Of a stretch of 64,000 nt of DNA, positions 6,798 to 39,095 are shown in pieces. The position numbers and the translations under genes are program-made. Positions within the stretch are counted from its first letter, which is position 1; every line of letters starts with the position of its first letter. The notes beneath the pieces are model-generated. The model was not told where the DNA came from. It made no database searches and worked only from the letters and a program-made list of their open reading frames with translations. Source of the DNA: Alphaproteobacteria bacterium (lineage in GTDB: Bacteria; Pseudomonadota; Alphaproteobacteria; UBA7887); assembly GCA_965216755.1 (NCBI GenBank), contig CBDCGL010000011.1, positions 3,840,001 to 3,904,000 of the forward strand, read 5' to 3'.

Positions 6798-7511
6798 ATG
6801 GGTGTTGATATGCATCAGCGGTCGCCAGATAGCCGTGCTGTGGTCAAGGCCAGCGTTTGGTTCAACACCGGTATTATGGCGATTCTGGCCGGACTCGCGT
6901 TGGCCGCCGCGCTGTTTGTCATCACGCATGCATCGCTGGCTATTTTCGGCAAGCACGCGGGTGGCTATCTGAACCTGTTGGGCGTTTTCTTACCGGGCTA
7001 TCACGCCAGTCCCAGCGGTGCTTGGATCGGCTTGCTGTGGGGCGTCTTGGTCGGCGGTTTCATCGGCGCCGCGTTTTACCGTATCTACGCGGCCGACGCG
7101 CTGCGCAGTGGCACACCGATGGCCCACATATCCAGCCAGGCCGATGATGCCGAATCCTGGCAACCACCGGTCATGCTTTTGTCAGGACATCACTTGGGTA
7201 TCGCTGTCGGCGCATTGATGGCGGCCCTTTTGGCCATGGGCACGCTGTGGCTGGTTATTCGCGGTACGGCGCATGAAAGTGTCCATGCCGCGCTTTTGAG
7301 CAACTACTTGCCGGGGTACTCCGTCGATGTTGGCGGGGCGCTGATCGGGGCGGCGGACATATTCCTTGCAACTTACGTTTTCACAACCATCTTCGCGTTT
7401 ATTTACAACAGGGTCGCGAAAATGCGCTGTGAGAGGGGGATTGGTGGAAGCACCTCAGGGGAAAGTCGTCATCCTCGGTGGCGGACCGGGCGGGCTGGCC
7501 GCGGGACATGA
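6798..7511 (+). CDS. Membrane protein with duplicated 2-TM module
   Basis: Two copies of LPGYxxxxxGAxIG; ends FAFIYN. Confidence 0.75.
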   Translation: MGVDMHQRSPDSRAVVKASVWFNTGIMAILAGLALAAALFVITHASLAIFGKHAGGYLNLLGVFLPGYHASPSGAWIGLLWGVLVGGFIGAAFYRIYAADALRSGTPMAHISSQADDAESWQPPVMLLSGHHLGIAVGALMAALLAMGTLWLVIRGTAHESVHAALLSNYLPGYSVDVGGALIGAADIFLATYVFTTIFAFIYNRVAKMRCERGIGGSTSGESRHPRWRTGRAGRGT

Positions 7512-8943
7512 GCTCGTCGCGCGCGGCATGCGCGTGATGGTGCTGGAACGCAATGGTTATGTCGGCGGCCTGTGCCGCACAATTCACCATAACGGCTATA
7601 AATTCGATCTTGGCGGCCATCGTTGGTTTACCAAGAACGAGGATTTGAACCGATGGTTTCGCGAGTTGATGGAAGGCGAGATCGTCTGGGTCGACCGCAT
7701 TAGCCGCATCTATTACGGCGGCAAATACTTCAACTATCCGGTCCGGTTTGGTGACGTCGTGCGCAAATCGGGCCCGTTGACGATCCTGCATGCCGGGTTG
7801 TCGTTTTTGTGGGCTGTGGTCAAGAACGCACTCGGCAGCAAACCGCCCGTAACCATGCGCGATGCTTATGTGCGGCAATTTGGCTACAAGCTCTATGACA
7901 TGTTTTTTCGCCTTTACAGCGAGAAGGTCTGGGGGCTGCCGTGCGATCAGTTGTCTGCGGATTGGGTGACACAGCGCAGCAAAGGCCTATCGATTTGGAC
8001 AGTGATTAGAGATGCGCTTGCTGGCAGTGGCGGCAAGGTGGTGAGCCTAATCGAGCAGTTCATGTATCCGCGCGACGGCTATATGCGTATTCCCGAGCGC
8101 ATGGCCGAAGATATCACCGCTGCCGGTAGCGAGGTTGTCTTGGGCAGCACGGTCACGCGCATCACGTACAATGGACCGCGCGATTTTGTCATCACCTACA
8201 GCCAAGATGGCGTTGAGAAGACGACCAAGGCCGACGCCGTGGTCTCCACCATTCCACTGGGTTTGCTGGCACGCATTTTCGAACCGCAATGCGATGATGC
8301 GGTGACGAATGCCGCGCAAGCCTTGGTGTTTCGGGATTTGATTACCGTCAACGTCATGATCAACCGACCGCAAGTGACCGGCGACACCTGGCTCTATGTC
8401 CAGGACCACGACATCCTGTTTGGGCGAATTCACGAGCCGAAGAACTGGAGCCCGGCCATGGTGCCGGATGACGGCGTCACGTCTCTCGTATTGGAGTGCT
8501 TTTGCTCACGCGGCGACGACATTTGGTCGATGTCTGACGAAGACGTTGCCGCCCGCTGCATTGACGATTTGGTGACCAAGCTTGAATTCATTGATCGCGA
8601 CGATGTCGTCGATACAAATGTCGCGCGCGTGACGCAGGCCTATCCTGTGTACGATTTGCAGTACAAACAACGTATCGATGTGATTCAGGATTTCTTGCAG
8701 AGCTTTAATGGCCTCTACACGGTCGGGCGCGGCGGTACGTTTCGCTACAACAACGCCGATCACTCCATTGAGATGGGTCTTTTGGTGGCGCGCCGCATTC
8801 TGGGCGAATCGATCGATTTTATGTCGGTGAATACGGAGCATGCCTATCACGAAGAAGTCCGCGAAGGCGACGAAACGCGCGCGGATCTTTACACCTATTT
8901 TCCCAGCTCGGTGACCCTGCGATGCGCGCGCGAGGCCGAGTGA
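7444..8943 (+). CDS. FAD-dependent oxidoreductase, paralog of 2586..4046
   Basis: VVILGGGPGG, DLGGHRWF, MYPRDGYMRI, AYPVYD, GRGGTFRYNNADHSIEM; GTG 7444 preceded by GAGGGGG. Confidence 0.85.
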   Translation: MEAPQGKVVILGGGPGGLAAGHELVARGMRVMVLERNGYVGGLCRTIHHNGYKFDLGGHRWFTKNEDLNRWFRELMEGEIVWVDRISRIYYGGKYFNYPVRFGDVVRKSGPLTILHAGLSFLWAVVKNALGSKPPVTMRDAYVRQFGYKLYDMFFRLYSEKVWGLPCDQLSADWVTQRSKGLSIWTVIRDALAGSGGKVVSLIEQFMYPRDGYMRIPERMAEDITAAGSEVVLGSTVTRITYNGPRDFVITYSQDGVEKTTKADAVVSTIPLGLLARIFEPQCDDAVTNAAQALVFRDLITVNVMINRPQVTGDTWLYVQDHDILFGRIHEPKNWSPAMVPDDGVTSLVLECFCSRGDDIWSMSDEDVAARCIDDLVTKLEFIDRDDVVDTNVARVTQAYPVYDLQYKQRIDVIQDFLQSFNGLYTVGRGGTFRYNNADHSIEMGLLVARRILGESIDFMSVNTEHAYHEEVREGDETRADLYTYFPSSVTLRCAREAE

Positions 8944-9005
8944 ACCGGCAAGCGACGATGCAAATGTGGCGTCGCCCGTAAGAGCGTTTACGGATCGCGA
9001 CGGTT

Positions 9006-10019
9006 ATGACGACGCCCGCGCACGACGCCACGATTTCGGCGATCATGCCTGTCTACAATGGCGCCGACTTTATCACCAAGAGCCTGCCGCCGCTCTTGCG
9101 CCTGCGGACGCAGGGCGATGTCGTGGAAGTCATTGTGGTCGACGACAGTTCGACCGATGCATCGGCGGCGATCGCCGCCCAACTTGGTGCCACGGTTCTG
9201 CCCTCGGGTGGGCGCCTGGGGCCCGGCGCCGCGCGCAACGTCGCGGCGCAACAGGCGCGGGGCACAATACTCTGGTTCGTCGATGCTGACGTCGTGGTGC
9301 ACGATGATGCGGCCAAGAAATTCCTGTCGGCCTTTGCTGATCAAGATGTGACCGCAGTCTTTGGATCGTATGACGACAATCCGCCGGTACAGACGTTTGC
9401 CGCGCAATATAAGAATCTGGTCCATCATTTCTATCATCAGCGCGGCCGCCGCAATGCATCGACATTCTGGGCTGGTTGCGGTGCGGTCCGAAAGGCCGCT
9501 TACTTGGCGGTCGGCGGTTTTGACGGCCAGCTCTATCGGCGCCCGGCGATAGAGGATATCGAGCTCGGCTATAGATTGATCGATGCCGGCGGCCGCATCG
9601 AGTTACACCCCGATATTCAATGCACCCACTTGAAAGCTTGGAAACTGTGGGAAGTCATACGGGTAGACGTATTTCAACGCGCCATCCCGTGGTCACGTCT
9701 TTTGATCAGTCGGCCTTCGGTGCCAGCCGATCTGAACATCAGCGCTGGCGAGCGACCAAAGGCGGTACTCGCGTTAGCGTGCTGGGCGGCACTGTTTTTC
9801 ACGATGGTTGGGGTCATCCCGTGGTGGGCCGCGCTTGGCGTCTTGGCTCTGGCATGGGCGGTCAATCGCCGATTGTTCGGCCTATTCTTGCGACGGCGGG
9901 GTGTGCTGTTTGCAATGGGCGGGTTCTTGTTTCATCAGCTCTACTATACATATAGCATAGCCAGCTATGTTTGGGCGTGGCTGAGCACGCGGCGGCCGGC
10001 CCGTGTTGCCGCCGGATGA
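9006..10019 (+). CDS. Glycosyltransferase family 2
   Basis: AIMPVYN, VVDDSSTD, ARN, FVDAD, GGFD, IEDIELGYRL; C-terminal TMs. Confidence 0.9.
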   Translation: MTTPAHDATISAIMPVYNGADFITKSLPPLLRLRTQGDVVEVIVVDDSSTDASAAIAAQLGATVLPSGGRLGPGAARNVAAQQARGTILWFVDADVVVHDDAAKKFLSAFADQDVTAVFGSYDDNPPVQTFAAQYKNLVHHFYHQRGRRNASTFWAGCGAVRKAAYLAVGGFDGQLYRRPAIEDIELGYRLIDAGGRIELHPDIQCTHLKAWKLWEVIRVDVFQRAIPWSRLLISRPSVPADLNISAGERPKAVLALACWAALFFTMVGVIPWWAALGVLALAWAVNRRLFGLFLRRRGVLFAMGGFLFHQLYYTYSIASYVWAWLSTRRPARVAAG

Positions 10020-28129: not shown

Positions 28130-29518
28130 CTACAGCTCCAGCCGGCCGCCAATGGTGATGATATGCTCGGTCAGGTCGGAATTGCCAAGAACTGTTTCGT
28201 ATTCGATGAACCCGGCCTTGCCGCCCGCCAACTGTGCGGCTGCGCCGAGCGAGAAGTTGAAGGTGTCGCGCTCCGGATCTTCGGTCAGCACTTGGAACGG
28301 AGATCCGAATGGATCGGACGCGAAGCGAGACGTGATAGCGCGGCTGTCGTTTTCGAACTCATGCTCCCATTCCAAGCGAGCTTGGGGGCTAAGAATGCCG
28401 AAATCCATCGATACCGGATACACCGCGATCACACCCAATCGGCTGCGTCGCGAGGTAATATCCTGCTCATCGACACGCAAATTGAGACCGTTGGCGCCGG
28501 TTTCGGTAAAGCCGTCGATGTCAACCCGCAGCTCGGTCAGCTGGGCAAACGGCGTGACCGTTGCTTGTTCCAGCTGGATATTGTAGCCGGCGCCGATCGT
28601 GCCCGCGATTTCAAAGCCATCCGAATTGCCACTGGCCGTGCGGCTGAGCGTGTCACTGGGGATTGAATAGACGATCCGCCGCTCGGTATCCATGTCCAGG
28701 AAACTGATCTCCAGCACACCTTCGACATACCAATTGTCGACGAAATAGGTCGCGAAACCGGTGAGATTGTAGGCGTTGGATTCCAGGCTGCCGCCACTGC
28801 CGTCGAAGTCATTGTCGCTGAAGGTATAGCCCGCGGCCGCGCCGACCAGGAACTGGTCAGAGACTAGGTAGTCGGCGCCAATCGTGAAGTCCAAGGCGTA
28901 GAAGTCAAAGCCTTGCCGCTCTGACGTGCCGTCGACGTCACCAAAACTGAAGGAACCCGAGCCAAACAAACCAAGCTGGCTGAAATCACCATCGCCGGCA
29001 CTCAGACCACTGTCGCTGGGTTGTAACCCGGTCAGGTTTGGTGAAACCACGTAGTCGTGGGCCATATTGAAGGCGGTCGACAGTCCACGCAGGTCGACCC
29101 GCGGACCACCAGCGCGCAAGCTGCCCAGTCTGTCGCCGACCGCCTCGCGCTGTGGACTCGATATGTCTGTCGCATTGATACCGCCTGCAGGGAAATCTGC
29201 CGGTGATACTTCTTCCAAGGCGCCCAATACGGGCCCGGTCGCCAGTCCATCGACGACATAGTCCGTGCACCTTCCGGCGAGATCGTCCAATGCACTGCCG
29301 CCGTCCACGCCGCGGCCGGGATCGACTGCCCCCGCGCCGCCCAACAAGGGGCACGACGATGCCACGGCATTTGACACACTGGACTGCAGCCGCGTTTGCG
29401 CCTGCGTCTGGCTCGCACCAAACGAAGTCAACGCAAGCGCGATTGCCACACCGGCATAAACAACGAACTGCGACGCCCTGACTGGGATCGCATCGTCAAT
29501 TCTTGCTTCACACAGCAC
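28130..29518 (-). CDS. Autotransporter beta-barrel domain protein with very short passenger
   Basis: Signal peptide, Cys pair, amphipathic strands (GADY, GAAAGY, PQARLEWEHEF), C-terminal GRLEL; RBS AGGGGG before GTG. Confidence 0.85.
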   Translation of the reverse strand: MLCEARIDDAIPVRASQFVVYAGVAIALALTSFGASQTQAQTRLQSSVSNAVASSCPLLGGAGAVDPGRGVDGGSALDDLAGRCTDYVVDGLATGPVLGALEEVSPADFPAGGINATDISSPQREAVGDRLGSLRAGGPRVDLRGLSTAFNMAHDYVVSPNLTGLQPSDSGLSAGDGDFSQLGLFGSGSFSFGDVDGTSERQGFDFYALDFTIGADYLVSDQFLVGAAAGYTFSDNDFDGSGGSLESNAYNLTGFATYFVDNWYVEGVLEISFLDMDTERRIVYSIPSDTLSRTASGNSDGFEIAGTIGAGYNIQLEQATVTPFAQLTELRVDIDGFTETGANGLNLRVDEQDITSRRSRLGVIAVYPVSMDFGILSPQARLEWEHEFENDSRAITSRFASDPFGSPFQVLTEDPERDTFNFSLGAAAQLAGGKAGFIEYETVLGNSDLTEHIITIGGRLEL

Positions 29519-29737: not shown

Positions 29738-29783
29738 CAAAAAAACCGGCCGGAACGGGGTGACGCCCCACTCCGACCGGCCC
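29738..29783 (-). terminator. Probable rho-independent terminator after 29807..30172
   Basis: GC hairpin CCGGCCGGAACGGGG..CCCCACTCCGACCGG followed by a U-tract on the minus strand. Confidence 0.55.
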
Positions 29784-29806
29784 TTGGTTGTCTATCGTGG
29801 TGCGTT

Positions 29807-30172
29807 TCAGCGCACGGCTTGGACCAAACAAAGTGATTCACGGAAGGCCAATATGAACACCGATGGATTGACCTCGCCTTGGCGTCGGAACGACACCGAT
29901 TGTTCGTCAATCAGCGTATTGAAGGTGAAGCCGGCCAATTCAGCCTCGTCGATCACTTTCTTGCCTTCTTGCCAGCATTCGGCACGGACCGGACGATCGG
30001 CCAAATAGTACTGGCGCGTTGCCGTGATCGGGCCGGACGCCGCATTCGAATCGACTTCACCATCGATCGCGCTACGACCTTGCCCGGCTTGCGTGAGGAT
30101 GCCGCCCGCCAGAGCCACGGCGAACAAGGCACCCAGGGTCAAAGGGCGGACCTTAAGGGGGGAAAGGGCCAT
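29807..30172 (-). CDS. Hypothetical exported protein (Cys pair, CWQEG motif)
   Basis: RBS AGGAG; N-terminal hydrophobic segment; 24 bp downstream of the CsgG-like gene. Confidence 0.75.
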   Translation of the reverse strand: MALSPLKVRPLTLGALFAVALAGGILTQAGQGRSAIDGEVDSNAASGPITATRQYYLADRPVRAECWQEGKKVIDEAELAGFTFNTLIDEQSVSFRRQGEVNPSVFILAFRESLCLVQAVR

Positions 30173-30196: not shown

Positions 30197-31693
30197 CTAT
30201 TCGACACGGATCTTCAACCGCGCGTCGACGGCGCCGGCCGGATCGAGACGGCGGTAGATGTTCACGACCTCATCTAGCGTATTGACGGGAACCGGCGTCA
30301 GATCCGCGATTTTCAGGTTCTCAGGCACACTCATGCCGACTTCTTTGTACGAGGCCACGCAGGCAACCTCTTCTTGCGCGCCTGGTTGGTCGAAAACGAT
30401 GTCGTAGAGCGCGACTTCGCTCGGCAGATCGAAGGCTTGGCGACCGACCACATAGGGATCCGGCCGGAATTGGTTCGGATAGATCCGGGCGATCGAACCG
30501 CGCGCATCCTGGTAGTAGCAATAGAGATACGAATCCTGCGAAACGGCGACCCGCATCTTGAGCTTCTGACCGACCTGATAGGTCGGTGACGGACCGTTGG
30601 CCGTCGACAAGTCGATCGACAGCGGCGGCACAATGTTGCTGGCCGCTATAATTTCCGGTTTCGCCGGTTGTACGCCCAACGCCAGGTCTTGAGTCATCAG
30701 CGATTGATACAGATCGAAATCGATGCGCCCATTGGCGATCAACCCGGCATCGGCCTGATAACGCGAGATCGCACCAACGGTGGTGGTATCGAGTTGTCCG
30801 TTTTCCTCGCCGGCGTAATAGCCTTGGCTGGCGAGCGCTTGCTGGGTGAAGCGGATCTGTTCGTCCTGGGTCATCGAGTCAAACCAGTCACGCGCTTGCG
30901 CGATCATTTTCGGGTTGGTGTGCTCGATCTGCAGGCAACGCCAATACGGAACGCGGGTGAGCTTGCCCAACGTTTCGATAGCGGTGAGTTCGATCAACGT
31001 GCGCACCGATTGGGCCATGCCCTCGGCCGCATTGAGCGAAATATTGAAGAAGATACCGGCGTTGCCGATCGTGCCGCCGGCATCGCCACCGGTGCCGGTG
31101 CGGGTTACCGAGATCGAGTTGCTGGCGCCAATGCCCGGCATGATTTGCAACTTGGCCAGTTCGCCAATGTTCATATCCAGGGTAACGACCGAAACAACCT
31201 GGTCCTTGTTGATACCCAGTTCGGCTTGCGGGAACGCAAGTCCGCCACCAGCCGACTCGGCGATGACGCCCTCGTCCAATTGCGTGATGGCGCCGCGGAT
31301 ATAGTAGCGCGGCACGCTGAACTCGTCGGTGAAACCGACCAGGCTGTGCAACTGCAGCACATCCGCTTGGGTGACGTCGAAATCAACAAACGTGAACGCC
31401 TTACTGCGGACCGACATCCGCGAAATTGCGGAAATCAACATGTCCTTTGTGCCGGCACGCACATTGCCTGTCTCGTCGGGAAGACCAGCGCTGGTAATGA
31501 CAATATTGTTGACGCCAAAGGACGCGTACAAATTGTCCATGCATTTCAGCGATTCGCTGAAACTGGTGATATTCCGGACCGCCGTCGATTTAGGCTGTGC
31601 TGCAACCGGCGCTGTCTGCGGATCGGAAAAAGCACATGCCGATGTGGCGGCCGCGACGCACACGGCAATCGCCGATTTGATTGACCGTCTCAT
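30197..31693 (-). CDS. CsgG/HfaB-like lipoprotein fused to peptidoglycan-binding and DUF4384-like domains
   Basis: Lipobox TSAC; SFSESLKCMD..LPDETG..DMLISAIS..YIRGAITQLD; PG-binding motif QQALASQGYY..GQLD..AISRYQ..GLIANG; C-terminal YQVGQKL..YLYCYYQD..IYPN. Confidence 0.8.
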   Translation of the reverse strand: MRRSIKSAIAVCVAAATSACAFSDPQTAPVAAQPKSTAVRNITSFSESLKCMDNLYASFGVNNIVITSAGLPDETGNVRAGTKDMLISAISRMSVRSKAFTFVDFDVTQADVLQLHSLVGFTDEFSVPRYYIRGAITQLDEGVIAESAGGGLAFPQAELGINKDQVVSVVTLDMNIGELAKLQIMPGIGASNSISVTRTGTGGDAGGTIGNAGIFFNISLNAAEGMAQSVRTLIELTAIETLGKLTRVPYWRCLQIEHTNPKMIAQARDWFDSMTQDEQIRFTQQALASQGYYAGEENGQLDTTTVGAISRYQADAGLIANGRIDFDLYQSLMTQDLALGVQPAKPEIIAASNIVPPLSIDLSTANGPSPTYQVGQKLKMRVAVSQDSYLYCYYQDARGSIARIYPNQFRPDPYVVGRQAFDLPSEVALYDIVFDQPGAQEEVACVASYKEVGMSVPENLKIADLTPVPVNTLDEVVNIYRRLDPAGAVDARLKIRVE

Positions 31694-32103: not shown

Positions 32104-32616
32104 TTAGCAAGTGGGGGTGCCGAGCGTGCCGATCTCCATGCAGGTGGTGGTGTGGTTGCCGACAGACACCGCCGCGTTGCGCTTCGCGATCACGGCCTGC
32201 TGCACGACACCGTTGACCTCGATGTCACGCGCCGTGCCGATGTGCTGGCGGCTGTAGGCGTAGTTGCCGTAGGCGACGTTGGCGTTGTCCTTGGCGATCA
32301 CGGCGCGCTGCATCACACCATTGATCTCACCATTCTCGACCGTGCCGATCCGGGTACGGGCGTCGGCGTAGTTGCCAACCGCGACCGTGGCGTTGCCCTC
32401 GGCGATCACCGCATCCTGCAGCACACCATTCACCGTCAGGCCACCCTTCTTGGCGCCACTTTCCTTGCCGAAGTCGTTGTTCGACAGAACGTTCACGACG
32501 GCGGCTTTTTGCTTAACCTTGGTGAAGTCGAAGTTGATGTCGTCAGCCGAAGCGGCCGAAACGGAAACCACGGTCAGAGCCGCAACAGCCGCCGAAATCT
32601 TCAGAAGTGCGTTCAT
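32104..32616 (-). CDS. Secreted 36-aa-repeat protein A1 (putative fibre subunit)
   Basis: Sec signal (..SAASA), three xxNGVxQxAVIAxxNxxVxxGN..IGT repeats, C-terminal Cys pair; RBS GAGG. Confidence 0.88.
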   Translation of the reverse strand: MNALLKISAAVAALTVVSVSAASADDINFDFTKVKQKAAVVNVLSNNDFGKESGAKKGGLTVNGVLQDAVIAEGNATVAVGNYADARTRIGTVENGEINGVMQRAVIAKDNANVAYGNYAYSRQHIGTARDIEVNGVVQQAVIAKRNAAVSVGNHTTTCMEIGTLGTPTC

Positions 32617-32702
32617 TGTTGAATCCTCAAATTAGGGTGGGTTTGATCTAGTCGCGTGACGACCGGGTCGTTTGGCTCTAACCGTGTCGCCCGGCCTGCC
32701 TG

Positions 32703-32733
32703 TAAACACGCTGCCCGCGGCACAGAGGGGTGA
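32703..32733 (-). promoter_or_regulatory. ECF-type promoter of A1
   Basis: TCACCCC-N16-CGTGTTTA with upstream A-tract. Confidence 0.75.
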
Positions 32734-32789
32734 TCAGCTTGAATTTTTTTGTTTCATGTCTGTTTGGCGCCGGCGCGAATACTGCGAAA

Positions 32790-32834
32790 AAACAAAAAAA
32801 TAAACCGCCGCAGCATTTTAAGCACTGCGGCGGT
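32790..32834 (-). terminator. Rho-independent terminator after B1
   Basis: ACCGCCGCAG..CTGCGGCGGT stem followed by a long U-tract on the minus strand. Confidence 0.8.
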
Positions 32835-32888
32835 GTCGGATCGTGGGGCATACACGTCGCCAGGTTGGCGACTCCCAAACAGCCAGAA

Positions 32889-33191
32889 TTACCTGCATCC
32901 GCCGGCGCCGACCACGTTGATCACGTTCTTGGCGACGACGATGATCTCACGTGGCGCCTGGCCGTTGCCGGGATCGACATTGCCGATGCTGACATTGCCG
33001 CAGTCGCTGGAACGTTGCTCCAGACGCCGGGCCTCGCCACGCGTCAGGAACGTCTTGGCGAAAGCGCTGTTGACGCGCGACTGTGATCCGGAATCCAAAT
33101 GCGGCCGCTGATTGAACTCTTTGGCGCTGACGCTGGCTGCGGCCAGGGTCAACGAACCGGCCAACGCGATCACGAAAGCTGTTTTGGTCAT
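32889..33191 (-). CDS. Small secreted Cys-pair protein B1
   Basis: Signal peptide; CGNVSIGNV..PREIIVVAKNVINV..C; paralog of 34029..34337; RBS AGGAG. Confidence 0.85.
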   Translation of the reverse strand: MTKTAFVIALAGSLTLAAASVSAKEFNQRPHLDSGSQSRVNSAFAKTFLTRGEARRLEQRSSDCGNVSIGNVDPGNGQAPREIIVVAKNVINVVGAGGCR

Positions 33192-33281
33192 TGGTGATCT
33201 CCTATGTCCCGGTGAAAGGCTTTGGCGGAACCCGGGACTTTGCCGCGGGTTCCGCCGTGTAAGCGGTGGATTTGGCGTTGC

Positions 33282-33794
33282 TTAGCAGGTGGGGGTGCCG
33301 AGCGTGCCGATTTCCATGCAAGCGGTGGTGTGGTTACCGACGGAAACGACCGCGTTGTCCTTGGCGATCACGGCCTGCTGGACGACACCGTTGATCTCGA
33401 AGTCACGCGCCGTGCCGATGTGCAAGCGGCTGTAGGCATAGTTGCCGGCGGCGACGTTGACGTTGTTCTTGGCGATCACGGCACGTTGCAGAACACCGTT
33501 GACCTCACCGTTCTCGAGCGTACCGATGCGGGTGTAGGCCTCGGCGTAGTTACCGACCGCGACCGTGGCATTGCCTTCGGCGATGACCGCGTCCTGGACC
33601 ACACCGTTGACCGTCAAACCGCCCTTCTTGGCGCCGGTACCGGGGCCGAAGTCGTTGTTCGACAGAACGTTCACGACGGCGGCTTTTTGCTTAACTTTGG
33701 TGAAGTCGAAGTTGATGTCGTCAGCCGAGGCGGCCGAAACGGAAACCACAGTCAAAGCGGCGACGGCGGCGGAAATCTTCAGAAGTGCGTTCAT
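33282..33794 (-). CDS. Secreted 36-aa-repeat protein A2
   Basis: 152/170 aa identical to A1 by manual count. Confidence 0.88.
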   Translation of the reverse strand: MNALLKISAAVAALTVVSVSAASADDINFDFTKVKQKAAVVNVLSNNDFGPGTGAKKGGLTVNGVVQDAVIAEGNATVAVGNYAEAYTRIGTLENGEVNGVLQRAVIAKNNVNVAAGNYAYSRLHIGTARDFEINGVVQQAVIAKDNAVVSVGNHTTACMEIGTLGTPTC

Positions 33795-33881
33795 TGGTCA
33801 AGTCCCCTAAGAAGCGTTGATGTGTTGCTGGTGACGTTGCGTTGTTGGTGATGGCGTGACCGTGTCTTGCCGGTCTGCCCT

Positions 33882-33912
33882 TAAACACGCAGCGCTTCCG
33901 AAAGGGGGGTTA
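33882..33912 (-). promoter_or_regulatory. ECF-type promoter of A2
   Basis: TAACCCC-N16-CGTGTTTA with upstream T-tract. Confidence 0.75.
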
Positions 33913-33950
33913 GGGACGCCAAAAAAATGTCGGGGCACGCCAGTCAATAG

Positions 33951-33975
33951 AAAAAGGCCGCCCGATGGGGCGGCC
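33951..33975 (-). terminator. Rho-independent terminator after B2
   Basis: GGCCGCCC-N4-GGGCGGCC stem plus UUUUU on the minus strand. Confidence 0.8.
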
Positions 33976-34028
33976 CTTGCATCTTCAGTGGCACCAGCCT
34001 ATTTGGCGCCAAACGTCTTGATCACGTT

Positions 34029-34337
34029 CTATTGGCAACCGCCTGGGCCGACCACATTAACAACGTTTTTGGCGACCACAATGATCTCGCGTGGTGCCTG
34101 GCCATTGCCAGGATCGACGTTGCCGATACTGACATTGCCGCAATCACCCGTGCGCTTTTCAAGCCGTCGCACTTCTCCACGTTTTTGAAAGTTCTTCGCC
34201 AAAGCGCTGTTCACGCGCGATTGCGAACCGGAGTCCAGATGCGGCCGTTGGTTAAACTCGCCGGCTTGCGCTGCGCCGGTCAATGCCGTCACGCTGAAGG
34301 CGAAAGCCATGGCGATCAAAGGGGCAGGAAGTCTCAT
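34029..34337 (-). CDS. Small secreted Cys-pair protein B2
   Basis: Mature part 65/77 identical to B1 by manual count; different signal peptide. Confidence 0.85.
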   Translation of the reverse strand: MRLPAPLIAMAFAFSVTALTGAAQAGEFNQRPHLDSGSQSRVNSALAKNFQKRGEVRRLEKRTGDCGNVSIGNVDPGNGQAPREIIVVAKNVVNVVGPGGCQ

Positions 34338-34507
34338 GATCCGTCTCCGTGTCTAAGGACGGTGCCGATAGAGTAACCCGGCCTTGGCGAGAAAACCACG
34401 TCGAAGCCGCGTATATGTCTACCGGCGCCCCCTAACTGGCCAAATAGCAATGCCAATGCCATGCGGTCTTTCAATGCAACACCGCTCGGCGATAGGTCAT
34501 GTGCAGC

Positions 34508-35014
34508 TTATTCACACGTCGGTGTGCCAACCGTGCCAATTTCCATGCAGGCGTCGGTGTTGTTGCCCGAAGAGACCACTGCATTATCCTTGGCAATAAC
34601 CGCTTGCTGAACCACGCCGTTCACTTCTACGTCGCGCATCGTGCCAATATGCAATGTGCTTTCGGCATTGTTGCCGGCCGCGACATTGACATTGTCTTCG
34701 GCGATCACGGCGCGTTGCACGACGCCGTTGATTTCGCCACTCTCAATCGTACCGATGCGTGTATTGGCTTCGGAATTGTTGCCAACCGCGACTGTGGCAT
34801 TGCCGTCAGCGATGACAGCATCCTGCACAACGCCATTGATCTCAACACCACCGGATTTGGCACCCTTGCCGTCGGCGTCGTTGTTTGACAAGACGTTGGT
34901 AACGGCCGCTTTTTGTTTGACCTTATTGATGTCGACTTCTTGTGCGACAGCTGTCGAAAACAACAACACCGCAATTGCACTCGTTGCCATCAGAACTTTA
35001 CCAAAAGCGCTCAT
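34508..35014 (-). CDS. Secreted 36-aa-repeat protein A3 (more divergent paralog)
   Basis: Same KVKQKAAVxNVLSNND leader, three repeats and CMEIGTxGTPTC end; start ATG 35014 (or 35029). Confidence 0.85.
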   Translation of the reverse strand: MSAFGKVLMATSAIAVLLFSTAVAQEVDINKVKQKAAVTNVLSNNDADGKGAKSGGVEINGVVQDAVIADGNATVAVGNNSEANTRIGTIESGEINGVVQRAVIAEDNVNVAAGNNAESTLHIGTMRDVEVNGVVQQAVIAKDNAVVSSGNNTDACMEIGTVGTPTCE

Positions 35015-35205
35015 CTCACGATCCCCCATCGGAATGTTCGGTCAAAAGTACGGAATCTTTCGCTTCGTTCGCCTCCGATGTCTTCCAACAGCAAATACTA
35101 TAGCGTGGCAGTCGAATTTCGCACCTACAATTCGGCTCTGTCGCGAAACATTCATTCTGGGATTTGTCGGCGCGGGCCGACCTATAACCACAGTCGTAGT
35201 ACAAC

Positions 35206-35263: not shown

Positions 35264-36775
35264 CTAGCCCGCGTCGCCTGGCCCGAACTCAAGAAAGATG
35301 TGATCGCTCAACACTTGCGCCTCACCACCCTTTTCCAGCTCGACCAAGGCACGACGCAGATGGGCAAAGTAGCTCTGCGCGTTTTCCACTTCGGGCCGGG
35401 GCTCGGCAAACAAAGGGTGTGACGATGAAATGATCGTGATCATTTCCGTGCCAAACGGTGCCACCACTTCATACGGTTTCGGGCCGTCGCCAATGCGCAT
35501 GGCCTGCCCGCGCGGCACGGCCTGGGTCGGATCCCGTCCGGCCAGCGTCAGATGGCGGACGGACCCGTCGCCCTGAATGAAATCGACATAAACGTAGCTG
35601 TCAAACAGGCTCGTCGCCGTCGCTTCCAAGAGCAAGGTCTCGCCCTCGACATAGCTTAAGGTGTGGGCAACCGGCCGGATCATGGGTGCGGCGCCGACGC
35701 TGGCGTCGGTGACCGTGAAGCGGTGCAGGATTTGCAGCGTCTCGCAAAATGGCCAGTCGCGCACGAGGACCTTGTCCGTATTGACGGCAACCTGTTCGGA
35801 AAGATCCGAGACTTCTCGACGCAGCAACGCGACATCGCTTTTGCGCGAAACATAGCCGGTGATGTTCAGCGCGTCGGCGCCCTCGACATGTGCGCCGAGC
35901 CGGGCGCAATCAAAGTCGTCCATGATCGACGTCAGTTTTTTCAGCGGGAAACCAGCCAAACCGACCGGGCCTTCCAAGGCCCGTGTGCGCGGTTGGCTGA
36001 GCTGTTGATTCTGTTGCGCCAAGCGCGCGTTTTCCTCGGCCAATCCGGCATTCGATTGCGCCAACCCGGCGTTTTCCGCGGCCAACTCGTTATAGTCGGG
36101 TGAAACGCCCAAATGCAGGTATGGGGTCACGCCTTGGCCGACAAACATGCCGATCAGCAAACTGGCGGCCATCGCGAAACCGGCGACCGGCGAATGGACA
36201 ATGCGACCTACCATAGACCGCCGCCGCGGCTGGAACCGCACCACCGTGTCATCGGATGGATCGGTTGCTTCATCGGTTATCTTCGGTGTCGGCGCATCAA
36301 CGGTTTCGACCGACGCGTCCCGGCCCATGTCTTGTCCGACGCCATTCTTGGCGTAAGCCAAGATGGCGTCATCATGGCCGTCCCAGGCAATCGGTTGCTT
36401 GGTCTGTTCATAAAGGCCGTAAATCGCCCGATCGGCTTCCGACATGTCGTCGTCGCCGATAGCGGGGCTCTGGTTCGCGCTGGGTCGGGCATGCACTTCG
36501 CCGCTGCGGGCATACGTCAGAATCGACTCATCCCAGGCATCCCACGGGATCGTGTCGCGGCCGCGGTCATACAATTCCAAAACAACGGCCTCGGCTTCAT
36601 CGACATCGGCGTGACTATCACGCGCCGCGTCCTGGGATTCCTTGGCGAAGCCCAGAATGGCATCGTCAGACTCGTCCCAGTCAATCGGGTCCTGTGTGCT
36701 TTCATAAAGACGCAGGATGACGCGGTCTGCCGCTGTCAAATCCTCGTCGTCGCGTTTTGTTTTGTCCTGTGCCAT
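35264..36775 (-). CDS. Putative membrane anti-sigma factor (triplicated cytoplasmic motif, TM, coiled coil, DUF4384-like C-terminus)
   Basis: Directly downstream of the ECF sigma; VVRFQPRRR then TM with AASL; C-terminal YVEGETL..YVYVDF..APFGTEMI. Confidence 0.7.
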   Translation of the reverse strand: MAQDKTKRDDEDLTAADRVILRLYESTQDPIDWDESDDAILGFAKESQDAARDSHADVDEAEAVVLELYDRGRDTIPWDAWDESILTYARSGEVHARPSANQSPAIGDDDMSEADRAIYGLYEQTKQPIAWDGHDDAILAYAKNGVGQDMGRDASVETVDAPTPKITDEATDPSDDTVVRFQPRRRSMVGRIVHSPVAGFAMAASLLIGMFVGQGVTPYLHLGVSPDYNELAAENAGLAQSNAGLAEENARLAQQNQQLSQPRTRALEGPVGLAGFPLKKLTSIMDDFDCARLGAHVEGADALNITGYVSRKSDVALLRREVSDLSEQVAVNTDKVLVRDWPFCETLQILHRFTVTDASVGAAPMIRPVAHTLSYVEGETLLLEATATSLFDSYVYVDFIQGDGSVRHLTLAGRDPTQAVPRGQAMRIGDGPKPYEVVAPFGTEMITIISSSHPLFAEPRPEVENAQSYFAHLRRALVELEKGGEAQVLSDHIFLEFGPGDAG

Positions 36776-36826
36776 GTCTTGACCATTTAGGAAGCCCGAC
36801 GCAAATCGGACCGTTTCCAATACTTT

Positions 36827-37414
36827 CTATTGCGTGCCCAAGACCTTGTTCTTCAGGTGCTGGCGGGCGTAGCGCAATCGCGTTTTCACCGTTTCTCTAT
36901 TCGTGTTCATGACCTCGGCGATTTCCTCGTAGCTCATGTCACCTTCCAGATGCATCAGAAGCGTGGCCTTTTGCACGTCCGAGAGTTCGTCGATGGCTCT
37001 CATCAGAATTTGGGCCTTTTGCTTGTCGCCGTAGATCTCTTCGGGGTTGGCAATATCGATGTTGAACGTGTCCAGGACTTCTTCATCGCCGACCACGGTC
37101 TCGTCGAAATCTACGGTTTCGTAGTTTTTGTTCTTCCGATACCAGTCAATGAGTTGATTCTTCGCCAGTTTGTACAAGTAGGTCGTGAACTTTGCCTCCG
37201 CTGTGTATTGGCCCGATCGACACGCCCGAACCAGCTTGAACCACGTTTCGTGGGCCAGCTCGTCGCCAACTGCGGGAGATCCGCACTGGCGCGCGAAAAA
37301 GCGCCGTAAGCCTTCTCTTCGTCGGCGGTATACCGCCTCGAAAGCACCATCATCGCCCGACAAGTACTGTTTCATCAGATCTTCGTCGGTCAGAGATATG
37401 TCCGCTACGGTCAT
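36827..37414 (-). CDS. ECF (sigma-70 group 4) RNA polymerase sigma factor
   Basis: DEDLM..GDDGAFE, DELAHETWFKL, FTTYLYKLAKNQLIDWYR (region 2), MSYEEIAEVM..TVKTRLRYAR (region 4). Confidence 0.93.
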   Translation of the reverse strand: MTVADISLTDEDLMKQYLSGDDGAFEAVYRRRREGLRRFFARQCGSPAVGDELAHETWFKLVRACRSGQYTAEAKFTTYLYKLAKNQLIDWYRKNKNYETVDFDETVVGDEEVLDTFNIDIANPEEIYGDKQKAQILMRAIDELSDVQKATLLMHLEGDMSYEEIAEVMNTNRETVKTRLRYARQHLKNKVLGTQ

Positions 37415-37460
37415 CTCCGCGCCTGGCTGTCTAGTGATCAAAACGGCCATTACACTTCCA

Positions 37461-37490
37461 TAACACGCGTGCCGCGGCAAGAAGGGGTGA
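37461..37490 (-). promoter_or_regulatory. Autoregulatory ECF-type promoter of the sigma gene
   Basis: TCACCCC-N16-CGTGTTA, 46 nt upstream of ATG 37414. Confidence 0.75.
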
Positions 37491-38258: not shown

Positions 38259-39095
38259 ATGACTAGGCTCAAAACAACTTTGATGGCGACGGTGTGGAGC
38301 GCGAGCGTGGTTTTCGCCGCGGCCCAGGCTCAAGCCCAAGATGTGAATTATCTTGATGAGAATGCCACCCATTGTGAAATTTTCTCGTCGATCAGCATGG
38401 TGATCCCGGGCGACTGTGCCCTCGGTCTCGATGCGCCGGCGGCCAACCCGGCTACCGGTTTGGCGCCGCGCACCCGTGGCATCGTGCGCTACGATACGCC
38501 CGGTGGTACCCCGACGCCGGTGGTCCAGGCGACCGTGCCGTCGGCCCCGGCCCCGGCGCCCGTGGCGGCGGTCGAAACGCCGGAGTGGGATGACGTGCAG
38601 ATCGAGGACGCGGTCGCGGTCGCCGCACCGGCGCCGGTGGTGGCGGTCGAAGTGACCCCGGTTGCCGAAGAGGCGATCGTCGCCGACGCCACGCCCGTGC
38701 CGGCTGCCGTCGTCCAACAGGACAAGGACCCAGAGGAATTGGGTGTCGCGCTGCGCGTCGAGTTCGAGTACGACTCGTACCGATTGACCGGTGAAGCTCT
38801 TCAGGTCCTGGATCGTGTCGCCGCGGTGCTCAACGATCCCTTGCTGCGCGACAGCATGTTCCTGATCGAGGGACACACCGATGCCGCCGGCCCCGACGCT
38901 TACAACGTGACCTTGTCAGAGCGGCGTGCACAGAGCGTGCGTCAGTATCTGGCCCAGGCTCACGGCGTTGACTTCTCGCGCTTGGCCTACATGGGCAAAG
39001 GCGAGAGCGAGCTTTACAATCCCACGGATCCGTATGCCGCGATCAACCGTCGTGTCGAGATCCGCAACATCAGTGTGAACACGCCCACCGGCTAA
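38259..39095 (+). CDS. OmpA-family peptidoglycan-binding protein with Pro/Ala/Val linker
   Basis: Signal peptide; IEGHTDAAG..YNVTLSERRAQSV..NRRVEI. Confidence 0.9.
   Translation: MTRLKTTLMATVWSASVVFAAAQAQAQDVNYLDENATHCEIFSSISMVIPGDCALGLDAPAANPATGLAPRTRGIVRYDTPGGTPTPVVQATVPSAPAPAPVAAVETPEWDDVQIEDAVAVAAPAPVVAVEVTPVAEEAIVADATPVPAAVVQQDKDPEELGVALRVEFEYDSYRLTGEALQVLDRVAAVLNDPLLRDSMFLIEGHTDAAGPDAYNVTLSERRAQSVRQYLAQAHGVDFSRLAYMGKGESELYNPTDPYAAINRRVEIRNISVNTPTG

Follow-up and report, generated by a model that had tools for sequence, protein, structure and literature searches.

To our knowledge, only a few dedicated export systems for bacterial amyloids or fibres are understood, namely those of curli, Fap and the holdfast anchor. 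FapC contains three imperfect repeats of about 35–40 residues, each of which forms one cross-β layer, according to PMC12392863, and many CsgG-profile hits are likely to be paralogues outside curli operons, according to Dueholm 2012 (PMC3521004). Here we describe a gene cluster in a 64,000-nt window (the whole stretch of DNA that was analysed) in which three copies of a secreted repeat protein, A1–A3, lie ahead of C, a distant relative of the curli pore; the A proteins are therefore probably the subunits of a bacterial surface fibre that has not been described before. We read the cluster, which also encodes the small secreted proteins B and D, as an export system of a curli-like, type-VIII-like kind that serves a new β-solenoid fibre subunit, a reading that we hold with evenly balanced confidence.

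The three A genes lie on the minus strand. A1 (32104..32616) encodes a 170-aa precursor comprising a signal peptide, a flexible segment of about 35 residues, three 36-residue repeats and a C-x10-C pair; A2 (33282..33794, 170 aa) and A3 (34508..35029, 173 aa from its first start codon) are paralogues with 89% and 68% identity to A1, respectively. A sequence-only reading of this DNA had placed three paralogous secreted proteins at 32104..35014. The paralogy and the secretion were upheld, each protein carrying an AxA-type Sec signal peptide as judged by reading the sequence, and the three genes are there, but A3 extends to 35029, and 35014 marks its second methionine. The same reading had described three gap-free 36-residue repeats per protein with invariant N, G, Q, AVIA, GN and IGT positions, a terminal C-x10-C pair, no Trp, and Pro only outside the repeats, all of which we could confirm. 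Period-36 self-similarity, scored gap-free with BLOSUM62, reaches 154–185 in A1–A3, far above the maximum of 32 in shuffled sequences (500 shuffles per protein). Of the 36 columns, 15 show one and the same residue in all nine repeat units (N3, G4, V5, Q7, A9, V10, I11, A12, N15, V18, G21, N22, I30, G31 and T32), repeats inside a single protein have 17–21 of 36 residues in common, and a degenerate half-repeat (KVKQKAAVVNVLSNND) stands ahead of repeat 1. Between the A paralogues, dN/dS is 0.12–0.18 (0.09–0.18 overall); the A genes are therefore constrained and under purifying selection.

Profile comparisons identify A1–A3 as diverged members of an unannotated family with 2–9 repeats of 36–37 residues. 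Searches with the three proteins found no Pfam, NCBIfam or PDB sequence match, and for these three together with 11 further members no curlin or other Pfam family reached its curated cut-off, the Pfam matches listed at E ≤ 1 being unrelated families far under their cut-offs. With the A, B and C profiles, no PDB sequence reached an E below 0.03. A HMMER search with the A family against 1.84 billion representatives returned 18 matches at E ≤ 1e-3, of which 16 were retrieved; the remaining two are the window's own copy (P0001) and P0011, an unrelated 1328-aa Big_3/SLH protein that we discarded as a relative. Fifteen of the retrieved matches are small proteins with a signal peptide and a body of about 36-residue repeats, many with a C-terminal AC..IG.IG...C, and in the sixteenth, P0003, the likeness is confined to the first 56 residues. 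A repeat HMM made from these relatives found proteins with 2–9 repeats at a period of 36–37. A homologue search with A1 recovered only same-genome copies and one 149-aa chimeric fragment, and a protein search with the A family profile scored at least three proteins as matches, neither search being a measure of family size. Our literature search found no paper on the A-B-C-D module.

In the cluster, A genes alternate with B genes ahead of C, and D follows C, all on the minus strand. B1 (32889..33191) encodes a secreted protein of 100 aa; its mature N-terminus is conserved (KEFNQRPHLDSGSQSRVNSA), and at its C-terminus a Cys pair brackets a unit of about 35 residues. B2 (34029..34337) is a paralogue of B1, 70% identical. 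The C-terminal unit is weakly similar to an A repeat (alignment with the A repeat profile, E 8e-4 over 30 columns). The B tail and the neighbouring A co-vary only weakly (mean z 0.43, median rank 15 of 33; permutation p of about 0.01, computed without phylogenetic control). A complex prediction of the A1 repeats with mature B1, run without controls, scored 0.12 against a mark of 0.32, a value that speaks neither for nor against their binding. D (29807..30172) is a 121-aa secreted protein with a CWQ.G ... C motif that lies directly downstream of C and belongs to no known family. Promoter-like motifs precede A1 (GTGTTTA-N16-CACGGT, 32681..32709) and A2 (GTGTTTA-N17-CACGGT, 33859..33888), and terminator-like hairpins with T runs follow B2 (33953..33978, 11 pairs), B1 (32804..32834, 12 pairs) and D (29741..29785, 20 pairs), dividing the cluster into A3-B2, A2-B1 and A1-C-D, with the last hairpin ending the presumed A1-C-D unit. 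Upstream of the cluster, also on the minus strand, lies a gene for an ECF-type sigma factor (36827..37480), followed directly by that of a candidate anti-sigma factor (35264..36820) of 518 aa. The latter has N-terminal repeats, a hydrophobic stretch that on visual inspection looks like a transmembrane segment, a ZapB/DivIC-type coiled-coil-like match and a DUF4384-like C-terminus that, at 23 bits, does not reach the cut-off of 27.

The arrangement recurs. Two additional A copies lie elsewhere in the genome, which holds five A, four B and two C genes in total and includes a second complete module, A'-A'-B'-C'; these copies are natural material for separating the roles of major and minor subunits. 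We sampled 80 loci with a C homologue from Alpha-, Beta- and Gammaproteobacteria, a Deltaproteobacteria-labelled MAG and Myxococcota; the module recurs in the first three of these classes and beyond. Immediately upstream of C, 59 of the 80 loci have B; 6 have it at another place, and 15 lack it (3 of which have less than 1.5 kb of upstream DNA). D is downstream of C in 38. Where B is present, 46 of 65 loci also encode an A-type protein, against none of the 15 that lack B; in the other 19 B-carrying loci our HMM detected no A-type protein. Among 401 sampled Pseudomonadota genomes, 11 carry B, the window's own counted.

C (30197..31693, minus strand; reading frame open up to 31819) is a 498-aa lipoprotein with a lipobox Cys, a CsgG-superfamily N-domain, and then PG_binding_1 and DUF4384 domains. 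Aligning the profile of 120 C N-domains with that of 20 CsgG-family proteins, E. coli CsgG among them, hhalign returned a probability of 98.7% and an E of 1.6e-16 over 238 columns that run from the lipobox Cys as far as the last helix, including stretches that we take to align with the two transmembrane hairpin regions of E. coli CsgG. The match emerged once both sides were deep alignments: a 20-row C alignment compared with the single E. coli CsgG sequence gave a weak result (probability 21%, E 0.001). A CsgG HMM made without C proteins matched 45 of the 120 at E < 1e-3. The window's C had no match to Pfam CsgG (PF03783) at E ≤ 1, 6 of 20 C homologues matched it weakly at E ≤ 0.01 (best 5.2e-4), and the genome's second C scored 19 bits against a gathering cut-off of 20.8; C can therefore be called a remote superfamily member only. 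On profile evidence, then, the N-domain of C is a remote CsgG homologue. The PDB sequence matches of C are to peptidoglycan-binding domains only, and PG_binding_1 and DUF4384 were found in 20 of 20 scanned C proteins. Further, the segment from a D.TG motif to the next helix, which in E. coli CsgG holds the constriction loop, measures 8 residues in 91 of 120 C proteins (both flanking motifs present) versus 16–20 residues in 11 of 20 CsgG-family proteins. Given this short segment and the peptidoglycan-binding domain, C may therefore differ from CsgG in its action, or be no pore.

The proposal that A forms a β-solenoid gained support from AlphaFold2 (AF2). With a 38-row family alignment, the repeats (mature residues 34–146) were predicted with pLDDT 83–93 as a three-rung solenoid in which every 36-residue repeat contributes four strands, aligned in register from repeat to repeat; an A1 prediction with the three paralogues alone was of no use (pLDDT 41.6). 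The model is without a folded cap domain and its N-terminal 33-residue segment is disordered, and either this segment or the C-x10-C loop could cap the solenoid or limit stacking. The leading structural neighbours are functional-amyloid and β-helix proteins, with ice-binding proteins and β-helix adhesins also present, every match being weak. The FapC fibril 9u4u is the top Foldseek match (E 0.016, TM 0.15) and, as 9u4u_A, the best in VIA-align (Z 3.6, rmsd 3.9 Å, 106 residues; Z 2.9 on a second look). Because these matches are weak, with a best Z of 3.6, the fold lends support to a solenoid but none to amyloid.

We infer export through C, polymerization of A and the roles of B and D along the following lines. 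Each A precursor would pass the inner membrane via Sec. The mature protein, about 146 residues long and consisting of a flexible N-terminal segment (about 35 residues) and three contiguous 36-residue repeats, would then pass the outer membrane via C, whose gene shares a unit with A1. Once outside, the repeats would fold into a β-solenoid in which each repeat makes one rung and Asn/Gly occupy the corners, and molecules would stack end to end into a fibre. B, with its conserved mature N-terminus and its single Cys-bracketed A-like unit, probably nucleates the fibre or anchors it at the channel; D would be a periplasmic accessory, and the sigma factor and DUF4384 protein pair probably governs expression. 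Amyloid or fibre formation by A draws indirect support from the CsgG-superfamily lipoprotein next to it and from the conserved A-B-C gene order. A bolder version, which we consider unlikely, would make the cluster a third major class of dedicated machinery for bacterial functional amyloids, next to curli and Fap, with a wall-tied, gate-less CsgG-derived pore and B doing the jobs of both CsgF and CsgB. The conserved mature N-terminus of B would act as a plug or gate in the pore, stacking of the 36-residue-repeat subunits would be templated by the disulfide-bracketed single rung of B, and a wider pore would let through the disulfide-closed C-terminal loops of A and B. A resemblance of the B N-terminus to CsgF found no support (hhalign E 0.51 and 0.43).

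Many β-solenoids are monomeric, and A could be exported by B-C-D to act as a monomeric or short β-solenoid protein of the surface or matrix (for example, an adhesin or a surface-binding protein) with no amyloid-like fibres, an alternative that is possible yet doubtful. It would suit a molecule of only three rungs, the last closed by the C-x10-C loop, and the ice-binding proteins and adhesins among the weak structural neighbours; it sits less well with a model that has no folded cap domain, with homologues that vary from 2 to 9 repeats and have no other domain, and with the single A-like unit in B, which suits templating. Moreover, in the CsgG-type systems that we know of, curli and the holdfast anchor, the exported proteins are subunits of a fibre or an anchor. 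That C is instead a peptidoglycan-tethered outer-membrane lipoprotein of a CsgG/LpoB/FlgO-like kind, without a secretion pore and forming a periplasmic envelope structure with A, B and D, we regard as decidedly unlikely. The hhalign match covers the whole CsgG fold, presumed hairpin regions included, and the signal peptides and Cys pairs of A, B and D are equally compatible with the periplasm and the exterior. This reading nevertheless draws on the invariable PG_binding_1 and DUF4384 domains, the shortened constriction-loop region and the weak Pfam CsgG scores, that of the genome's second C among them, and, as a lead only, on LpoB and FlgO labels among neighbour clusters in ESM Atlas. For a C homologue the Atlas also gave, again as a lead only, its own cluster and CsgG/PG-binding neighbours at 0.81.

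A third alternative, that A is a diverged member of a known amyloid family (curlin CsgA/CsgB, FapC/FapB or HfaA), is highly improbable, and the sequence comparisons indicate that A belongs to none of the curlin, FapC and HfaA families. Three repeats of about 36 residues with terminal cysteines do recall FapC, whose fibril heads the structural matches, and the sequence-only reading had drawn this parallel; the architectural likeness stands, but we detected no sequence relation, the structural Z is just 2.9–3.6, and the cluster holds a CsgG-type rather than a Fap-type protein. As that reading had also stated, the curli consensus motif is absent: Curlin_rpt (PF07012) had no match at E ≤ 1 in A1–A3 and the 11 further members, none of which reached the cut-off of any Pfam family, and against E. 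coli CsgA hhalign gave E 0.22 with the A family alignment and 0.093 with the A repeat profile. Profiles of A, B and D against verified HfaA sequences gave E 0.015–0.73 (A: 0.085–0.47), which led us to reject them as HfaA, and comparisons of the B and D profiles with E. coli CsgE, CsgF and CsgC revealed no relatives (E 0.16–0.54); overall, no sequence relation linked A, B and D to CsgA, CsgB, CsgC, CsgE or CsgF. With the holdfast models (NCBIfam NF037934 and NF037935, for HfaA and HfaB), C scores 15.9 and 24.4 bits against HfaB, far short of the equivalog cut-off of 300, where true HfaB proteins score 385–409, and no HfaD-like gene was found among the neighbouring genes scanned.

The cluster pairs a CsgG-superfamily protein with a subunit family unseen by Pfam, NCBIfam and PDB sequence searches. 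If A polymerizes, it would be a new compact β-solenoid block with 36-residue rungs, variable rung number and a disulfide staple, relevant to biofilm biology and protein materials, and a gate-less, wall-anchored CsgG relative would widen knowledge of type VIII secretion and CsgG-type nanopores.

Compared with FapC, A has three repeats of similar length, each with one predicted rung, conserved Asn/Gln and terminal cysteines, and the FapC fibril 9u4u is its best, albeit weak, structural neighbour. In contrast to FapC, the A repeats follow one another with no linker between them, each is predicted to have four strands where the FapC Greek key has five per layer, and the surrounding genes are B, the CsgG-type C, D, the sigma factor and the DUF4384 protein, with no Fap operon apparent among them. 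The Caulobacter-type holdfast anchor HfaA-HfaB-HfaD, also from Alphaproteobacteria, resembles this cluster in that the gene of a small secreted partner directly precedes that of a CsgG-family lipoprotein (HfaB), and a TSFS..L.C / TPYS..L.C motif is common to the N-termini of C and HfaB.

The curli system differs in its unit, which spans about 19–23 residues (about 20 in PMC12392863) versus a period of 36 in A and 36–37 in its family. It also differs in its control, which is by CsgD, where an ECF sigma factor probably takes that part here, and in its pore protein, as C bears PG-binding and DUF4384 domains in addition and is shortened in its constriction-loop region. The flexible N-terminal segment of A is, we presume, comparable with the N-terminal targeting segment of CsgA. 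As in curli, the subunit has several paralogues, a minor protein contains a subunit-like unit (B, compare CsgB), and a CsgG-superfamily outer-membrane lipoprotein, here in the terminator-bounded unit of A1, is encoded together with small Sec-exported proteins of imperfect repeats in which Asn, Gln and Gly are conserved.

Three open reading frames on the minus strand of the window, A1 (32104–32616, 170 residues), A2 (33282–33794, 170 residues, 89% identical to A1) and A3 (34508–35029, 173 residues, 68% identical to A1), each begin with an AxA-type signal peptide, as read from the sequence. After residue 55, their gap-free self-score at an offset of 36 residues is 154–185, against a shuffle maximum of 32 (n = 500), bearing out the claim of the sequence-only reading that these are paralogous secreted proteins made of three 36-residue repeats. 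Repeats of one protein have 17–21 of 36 residues in common, and all nine repeat units agree at 15 of 36 columns (N3, G4, V5, Q7, A9, V10, I11, A12, N15, V18, G21, N22, I30, G31 and T32). The C-x10-C at the C-terminus, the absence of Trp and the restriction of Pro to positions outside the repeats also held in all three proteins. That reading overlooked a degenerate half-repeat (KVKQKAAVVNVLSNND) preceding repeat 1 and two further copies of A, which bring the number in the genome to five. The dN/dS among A1–A3 is 0.12–0.18.

Database searches place these proteins in a family that carries no annotation. Neither Pfam nor NCBIfam gave a match at or near its cut-offs for A1–A3, no Pfam family scored above its cut-off in 11 further members, NCBIfam had no meaningful match to 38 rows of the family alignment, and a profile search of PDB sequences found nothing below E 0.058. 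A word-indexed search of 5.8 billion proteins returned nothing beyond the copies in this genome and a single chimeric fragment. The 149-residue protein P0003, from an 840-base ENA contig, has 56 initial residues that are 91–93% identical to the A N-terminus, followed by PF01925; it is probably a chimeric or frameshifted gene prediction from that short contig. With HMMER, 18 of 1.84 billion cluster representatives scored E ≤ 1e-3, just two of them below 1e-10. Small signal-peptide proteins of two to six repeats of about 36 residues made up 15 of the 16 retrieved matches, many of which end in AC..IG.IG...C. Iterating a repeat HMM over these matches and the fetched loci gave the consensus VGGNLNQTTVVGGNTNAAIGLGATACTNIGTI and detected proteins with two to nine repeats of period 36–37. 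The window proteins are only about 20–30% identical to the remainder of the family; the common frame is clear in the 38-row alignment. Because this frame is shared with relatives of two to nine repeats, A1–A3 are, judged by sequence, diverged members of a real repeat family.

Using the 38-row alignment, AlphaFold (AF2) modelled mature A1 with a mean pLDDT of 74.5 and a pTM of 0.69, the pLDDT being 83–93 at residues 34–146 and below 50 in the first 33 residues; with three sequences only, it was 41.6. The model has four strands per repeat, with the register kept across repeats (41–49, 52–56, 61–66 and 69–74 in repeat 1; 77–85, 88–92, 97–102 and 105–110 in repeat 2; 113–121, 124–128 and 133–138 in repeat 3), and the invariant N-G, G-N and I-G-T positions lie at turns, as read from the DSSP string. 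Mature A1 is thus predicted to be a three-rung β-solenoid, as had been proposed from the sequence. Foldseek gave no match to this model at E ≤ 1e-3; the top match was the fibril of FapC, the Pseudomonas functional amyloid (9u4u, E 0.016), followed by ice-binding β-helices and the CsgA fibril 8enq. Among 48,161 chains compared with VIA-align, 11 reached Z ≥ 2 and none Z ≥ 5, the best being 9u4u_A (Z 3.6, r.m.s.d. 3.9 Å over 106 residues) and the EtpA β-helix (Z 3.6), and a second structural comparison again ranked 9u4u first (Z 2.9). The model therefore assigns A to the solenoid class, with a weak resemblance to FapC.

The A genes lie in a minus-strand series that runs ECF sigma factor (36827–37480), 518-residue protein (35264–36820), A3, B2 (34029–34337), A2, B1 (32889–33191), A1, C (30197–31693), D (29807–30172). 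B1 and B2, which are 70% identical to each other, are secreted, about 100 residues long and contain two Cys; the lipoprotein C has the domains PG_binding_1 (E 7e-9) and DUF4384 (E 3e-18). Terminator-like hairpins 3′ of B2, B1 and D suggest the units A3–B2, A2–B1 and A1–C–D. Just past D is an autotransporter gene (28130–29518, minus strand; β-domain E 1.4e-60) with a passenger of just ~180 residues, and an OmpA-family gene lies past the sigma factor (38259–39095, plus strand).

Protein C has 394 relatives at E ≤ 1e-3, the closest, by source name, from Geminicoccaceae and other Alphaproteobacteria. Compared directly, C resembles CsgG weakly: Pfam CsgG matched 6 of 20 C homologues (best E 5.2e-4), and hhalign of a 20-row C alignment with E. 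coli CsgG alone gave E 0.001. We then assembled a CsgG-family set from PF03783-positive proteins, found in 23 of the 121 genomes sampled from the class. Of 120 C proteins, an HMM of this set plus E. coli CsgG detected 45 at E < 1e-3, of which 12 also passed E < 1e-5 (database of 120). When 120 C N-domains were aligned with 20 CsgG-family proteins, hhalign returned a probability of 98.7% and E 1.6e-16, with 238 aligned columns that span the lipobox through the last helix. The C N-domain also matched three HfaB proteins (E 1.5e-9; HfaB identity verified for two of the three), and the NCBIfam HfaB model gave C 15.5 bits against a cut-off of 300. By these profile comparisons C is a remote CsgG homologue. 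The segment from the D.TG motif to the next helix, which holds the constriction loop in E. coli CsgG, is 8 residues long in 91 of the 120 C proteins (those with both motifs) and 16–20 in 11 of 20 CsgG-family proteins, of CsgG and HfaB type; the pore of C, if it is a pore at all, may be gate-less. Together with the wall-binding domain, the loss of the loop may mean a wider, fixed pore, which, if true, would be in keeping with disulfide closure of the C-terminal loops in A and B; alternatively, C may form no pore at all.

The 80 genome loci compared, each carrying a C homologue, belong to Alpha-, Beta- and Gammaproteobacteria, Myxococcota, a MAG labelled Deltaproteobacteria and one labelled Actinomycetota. 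B is directly upstream of C in 59, elsewhere in the locus in 6 and not found in 15 (3 with less than 1.5 kb upstream). A-type proteins occur in 46 of the 65 loci with B and in none of the 15 without, and 38 of the 80 loci have D downstream of C, two of these rows resembling off-frame ORFs. Of the 19 loci that have B but no A-type protein, eight were inspected: other Gln/Asn-rich repeat proteins precede B in four (L089, L090, L070 and L046), an OmpA-like gene possibly does so in L059, and nothing obvious lies ahead of B in L018, L021 and L023. An OmpA-like gene is also ahead of B in L046 and ahead of the repeat gene preceding B in L070. B is present in 11 of 401 sampled Pseudomonadota genomes, the window's own counted, and just 1 of 22 other genomes of the host's family has A-like matches.

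Arrangements vary. In six loci (L062, L063, L073 and L082, of Rhodocyclaceae type, and L056 and L081), A and B are not directly upstream of C but divergent from it or ~2.4–2.6 kb past its end; a Cys pair ends the last A before B, and further A copies have none. In three loci from gammaproteobacterial symbionts of lucinid clams (L075, L078 and L079, the latter two Candidatus Thiodiazotropha), B and C are preceded by two large A-type proteins, of 5 and 7 repeats, that lack the terminal Cys pair. The window's own genome has a second complete module (minus strand, 6926–9737 of locus L128, G000:C11:2451000-2466000) with two A-type proteins (108 and 138 residues), B (a 122-residue ORF) and a second C (501 residues, N-domain 65% identical); no D was detected there. 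It also holds an orphan A–B pair (L002, 1501–2455; A protein 98% identical to A1, 95.7% over 517 bases) and a lone A copy (L003, 1360–2071) that matches the A2 region, with its promoter-like motif, at 98.9% identity over 712 bases. Such near-identity suggests that the A unit underwent segmental duplication recently.

Homologues of the sigma factor and of the 518-residue protein occur in only 10 and 5 of the 80 loci, respectively, which marks both as local additions to the module. The 518-residue protein, read by eye, starts with three repeats of roughly 50 residues (ADRVILRLYEST.DPI.WD..DDAIL.FAK), after which come a hydrophobic segment, a stretch resembling a coiled coil and, at the end, a DUF4384-like domain that scores below its cut-off (23 bits); since C also has DUF4384, the two may sense the same periplasmic ligand. 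The 5.0-Mb genome has four occurrences of GTGTTTA-N16/17-CACGGT, a possible ECF-type promoter, all ~65–95 bases upstream of an A gene (window 32681–32709 and 33859–33888, minus strand; G000:C11:523990-524019 and 2824504-2824533), and none of the reversed control pattern. Upstream of A3 there is just a weaker look-alike; the region upstream of the sigma gene ends in ACGGTCAC.

B has a conserved extreme mature N-terminus (KEYNQRPHL.PG.QAKVNRV), a variable linker and a Cys-to-Cys unit of ~35 residues (C-G-.-L-.-I-G-N-V ... P-R-E-V-I-V-V-.-.-D-I-I-N-V ... C). In profile–profile comparison this unit aligned with the junction of two A repeats (E 8e-4, 30 columns). Any co-variation of the unit with the neighbouring A across 33 loci was slight (mean z 0.43, median rank 15 of 33, permutation p ~0.01 with no control for relatedness). 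No Pfam family matched D or any of 41 B members.

Taken together, these results lead us to a curli-like route that seems equally liable to prove right or wrong, in which A-type solenoids are fibre subunits exported via C. A would cross the inner membrane by Sec and, still unfolded, the outer membrane by way of a C oligomer; outside the cell it would fold into the solenoid and stack end to end, B serving as nucleator or anchor. The arguments for stacking, all indirect, are that homologues differ in repeat number (2 to 9) and carry no other domain, that the model lacks a folded cap, that there are multiple subunit paralogues, that B has a single rung-like unit and that the channel would be of CsgG type. 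A solenoid that is exported yet does not polymerize, to which that same channel would apply, is unlikely but a serious contender. Action of A in a periplasmic complex, which would need no pore in C, is a more doubtful prospect. The fibre reading remains the preferred one.

Searches of full-text literature found no paper on the A–B–C–D module. Its A–B–C gene order is like that of the Caulobacter-type holdfast anchor, but C falls short of the HfaB model and A of the HfaA model, and B, D and the A repeat showed no relation to HfaA. The sequence-only reading had drawn a parallel with FapC, which has three imperfect repeats of 35–40 residues, one layer each, with Asn/Gln networks (PMC12392863). The parallel stands for architecture, FapC being the closest to A in its three repeats of similar length and as the weak top structural match; no homology between FapC and A was detected, and the export gene differs. 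A also fails the curlin profile and repeat-length tests, and we regard it as very improbable that A is a hidden member of a known amyloid family. Nor does the module contain CsgE or CsgF; B, D and the A repeat showed no relation to E. coli CsgA, B, C, E or F. Many CsgG-profile matches are, according to Dueholm et al. (2012), probably paralogues outside curli operons (PMC3521004). By analogy, the working mode of the module would nonetheless be most like that of curli.
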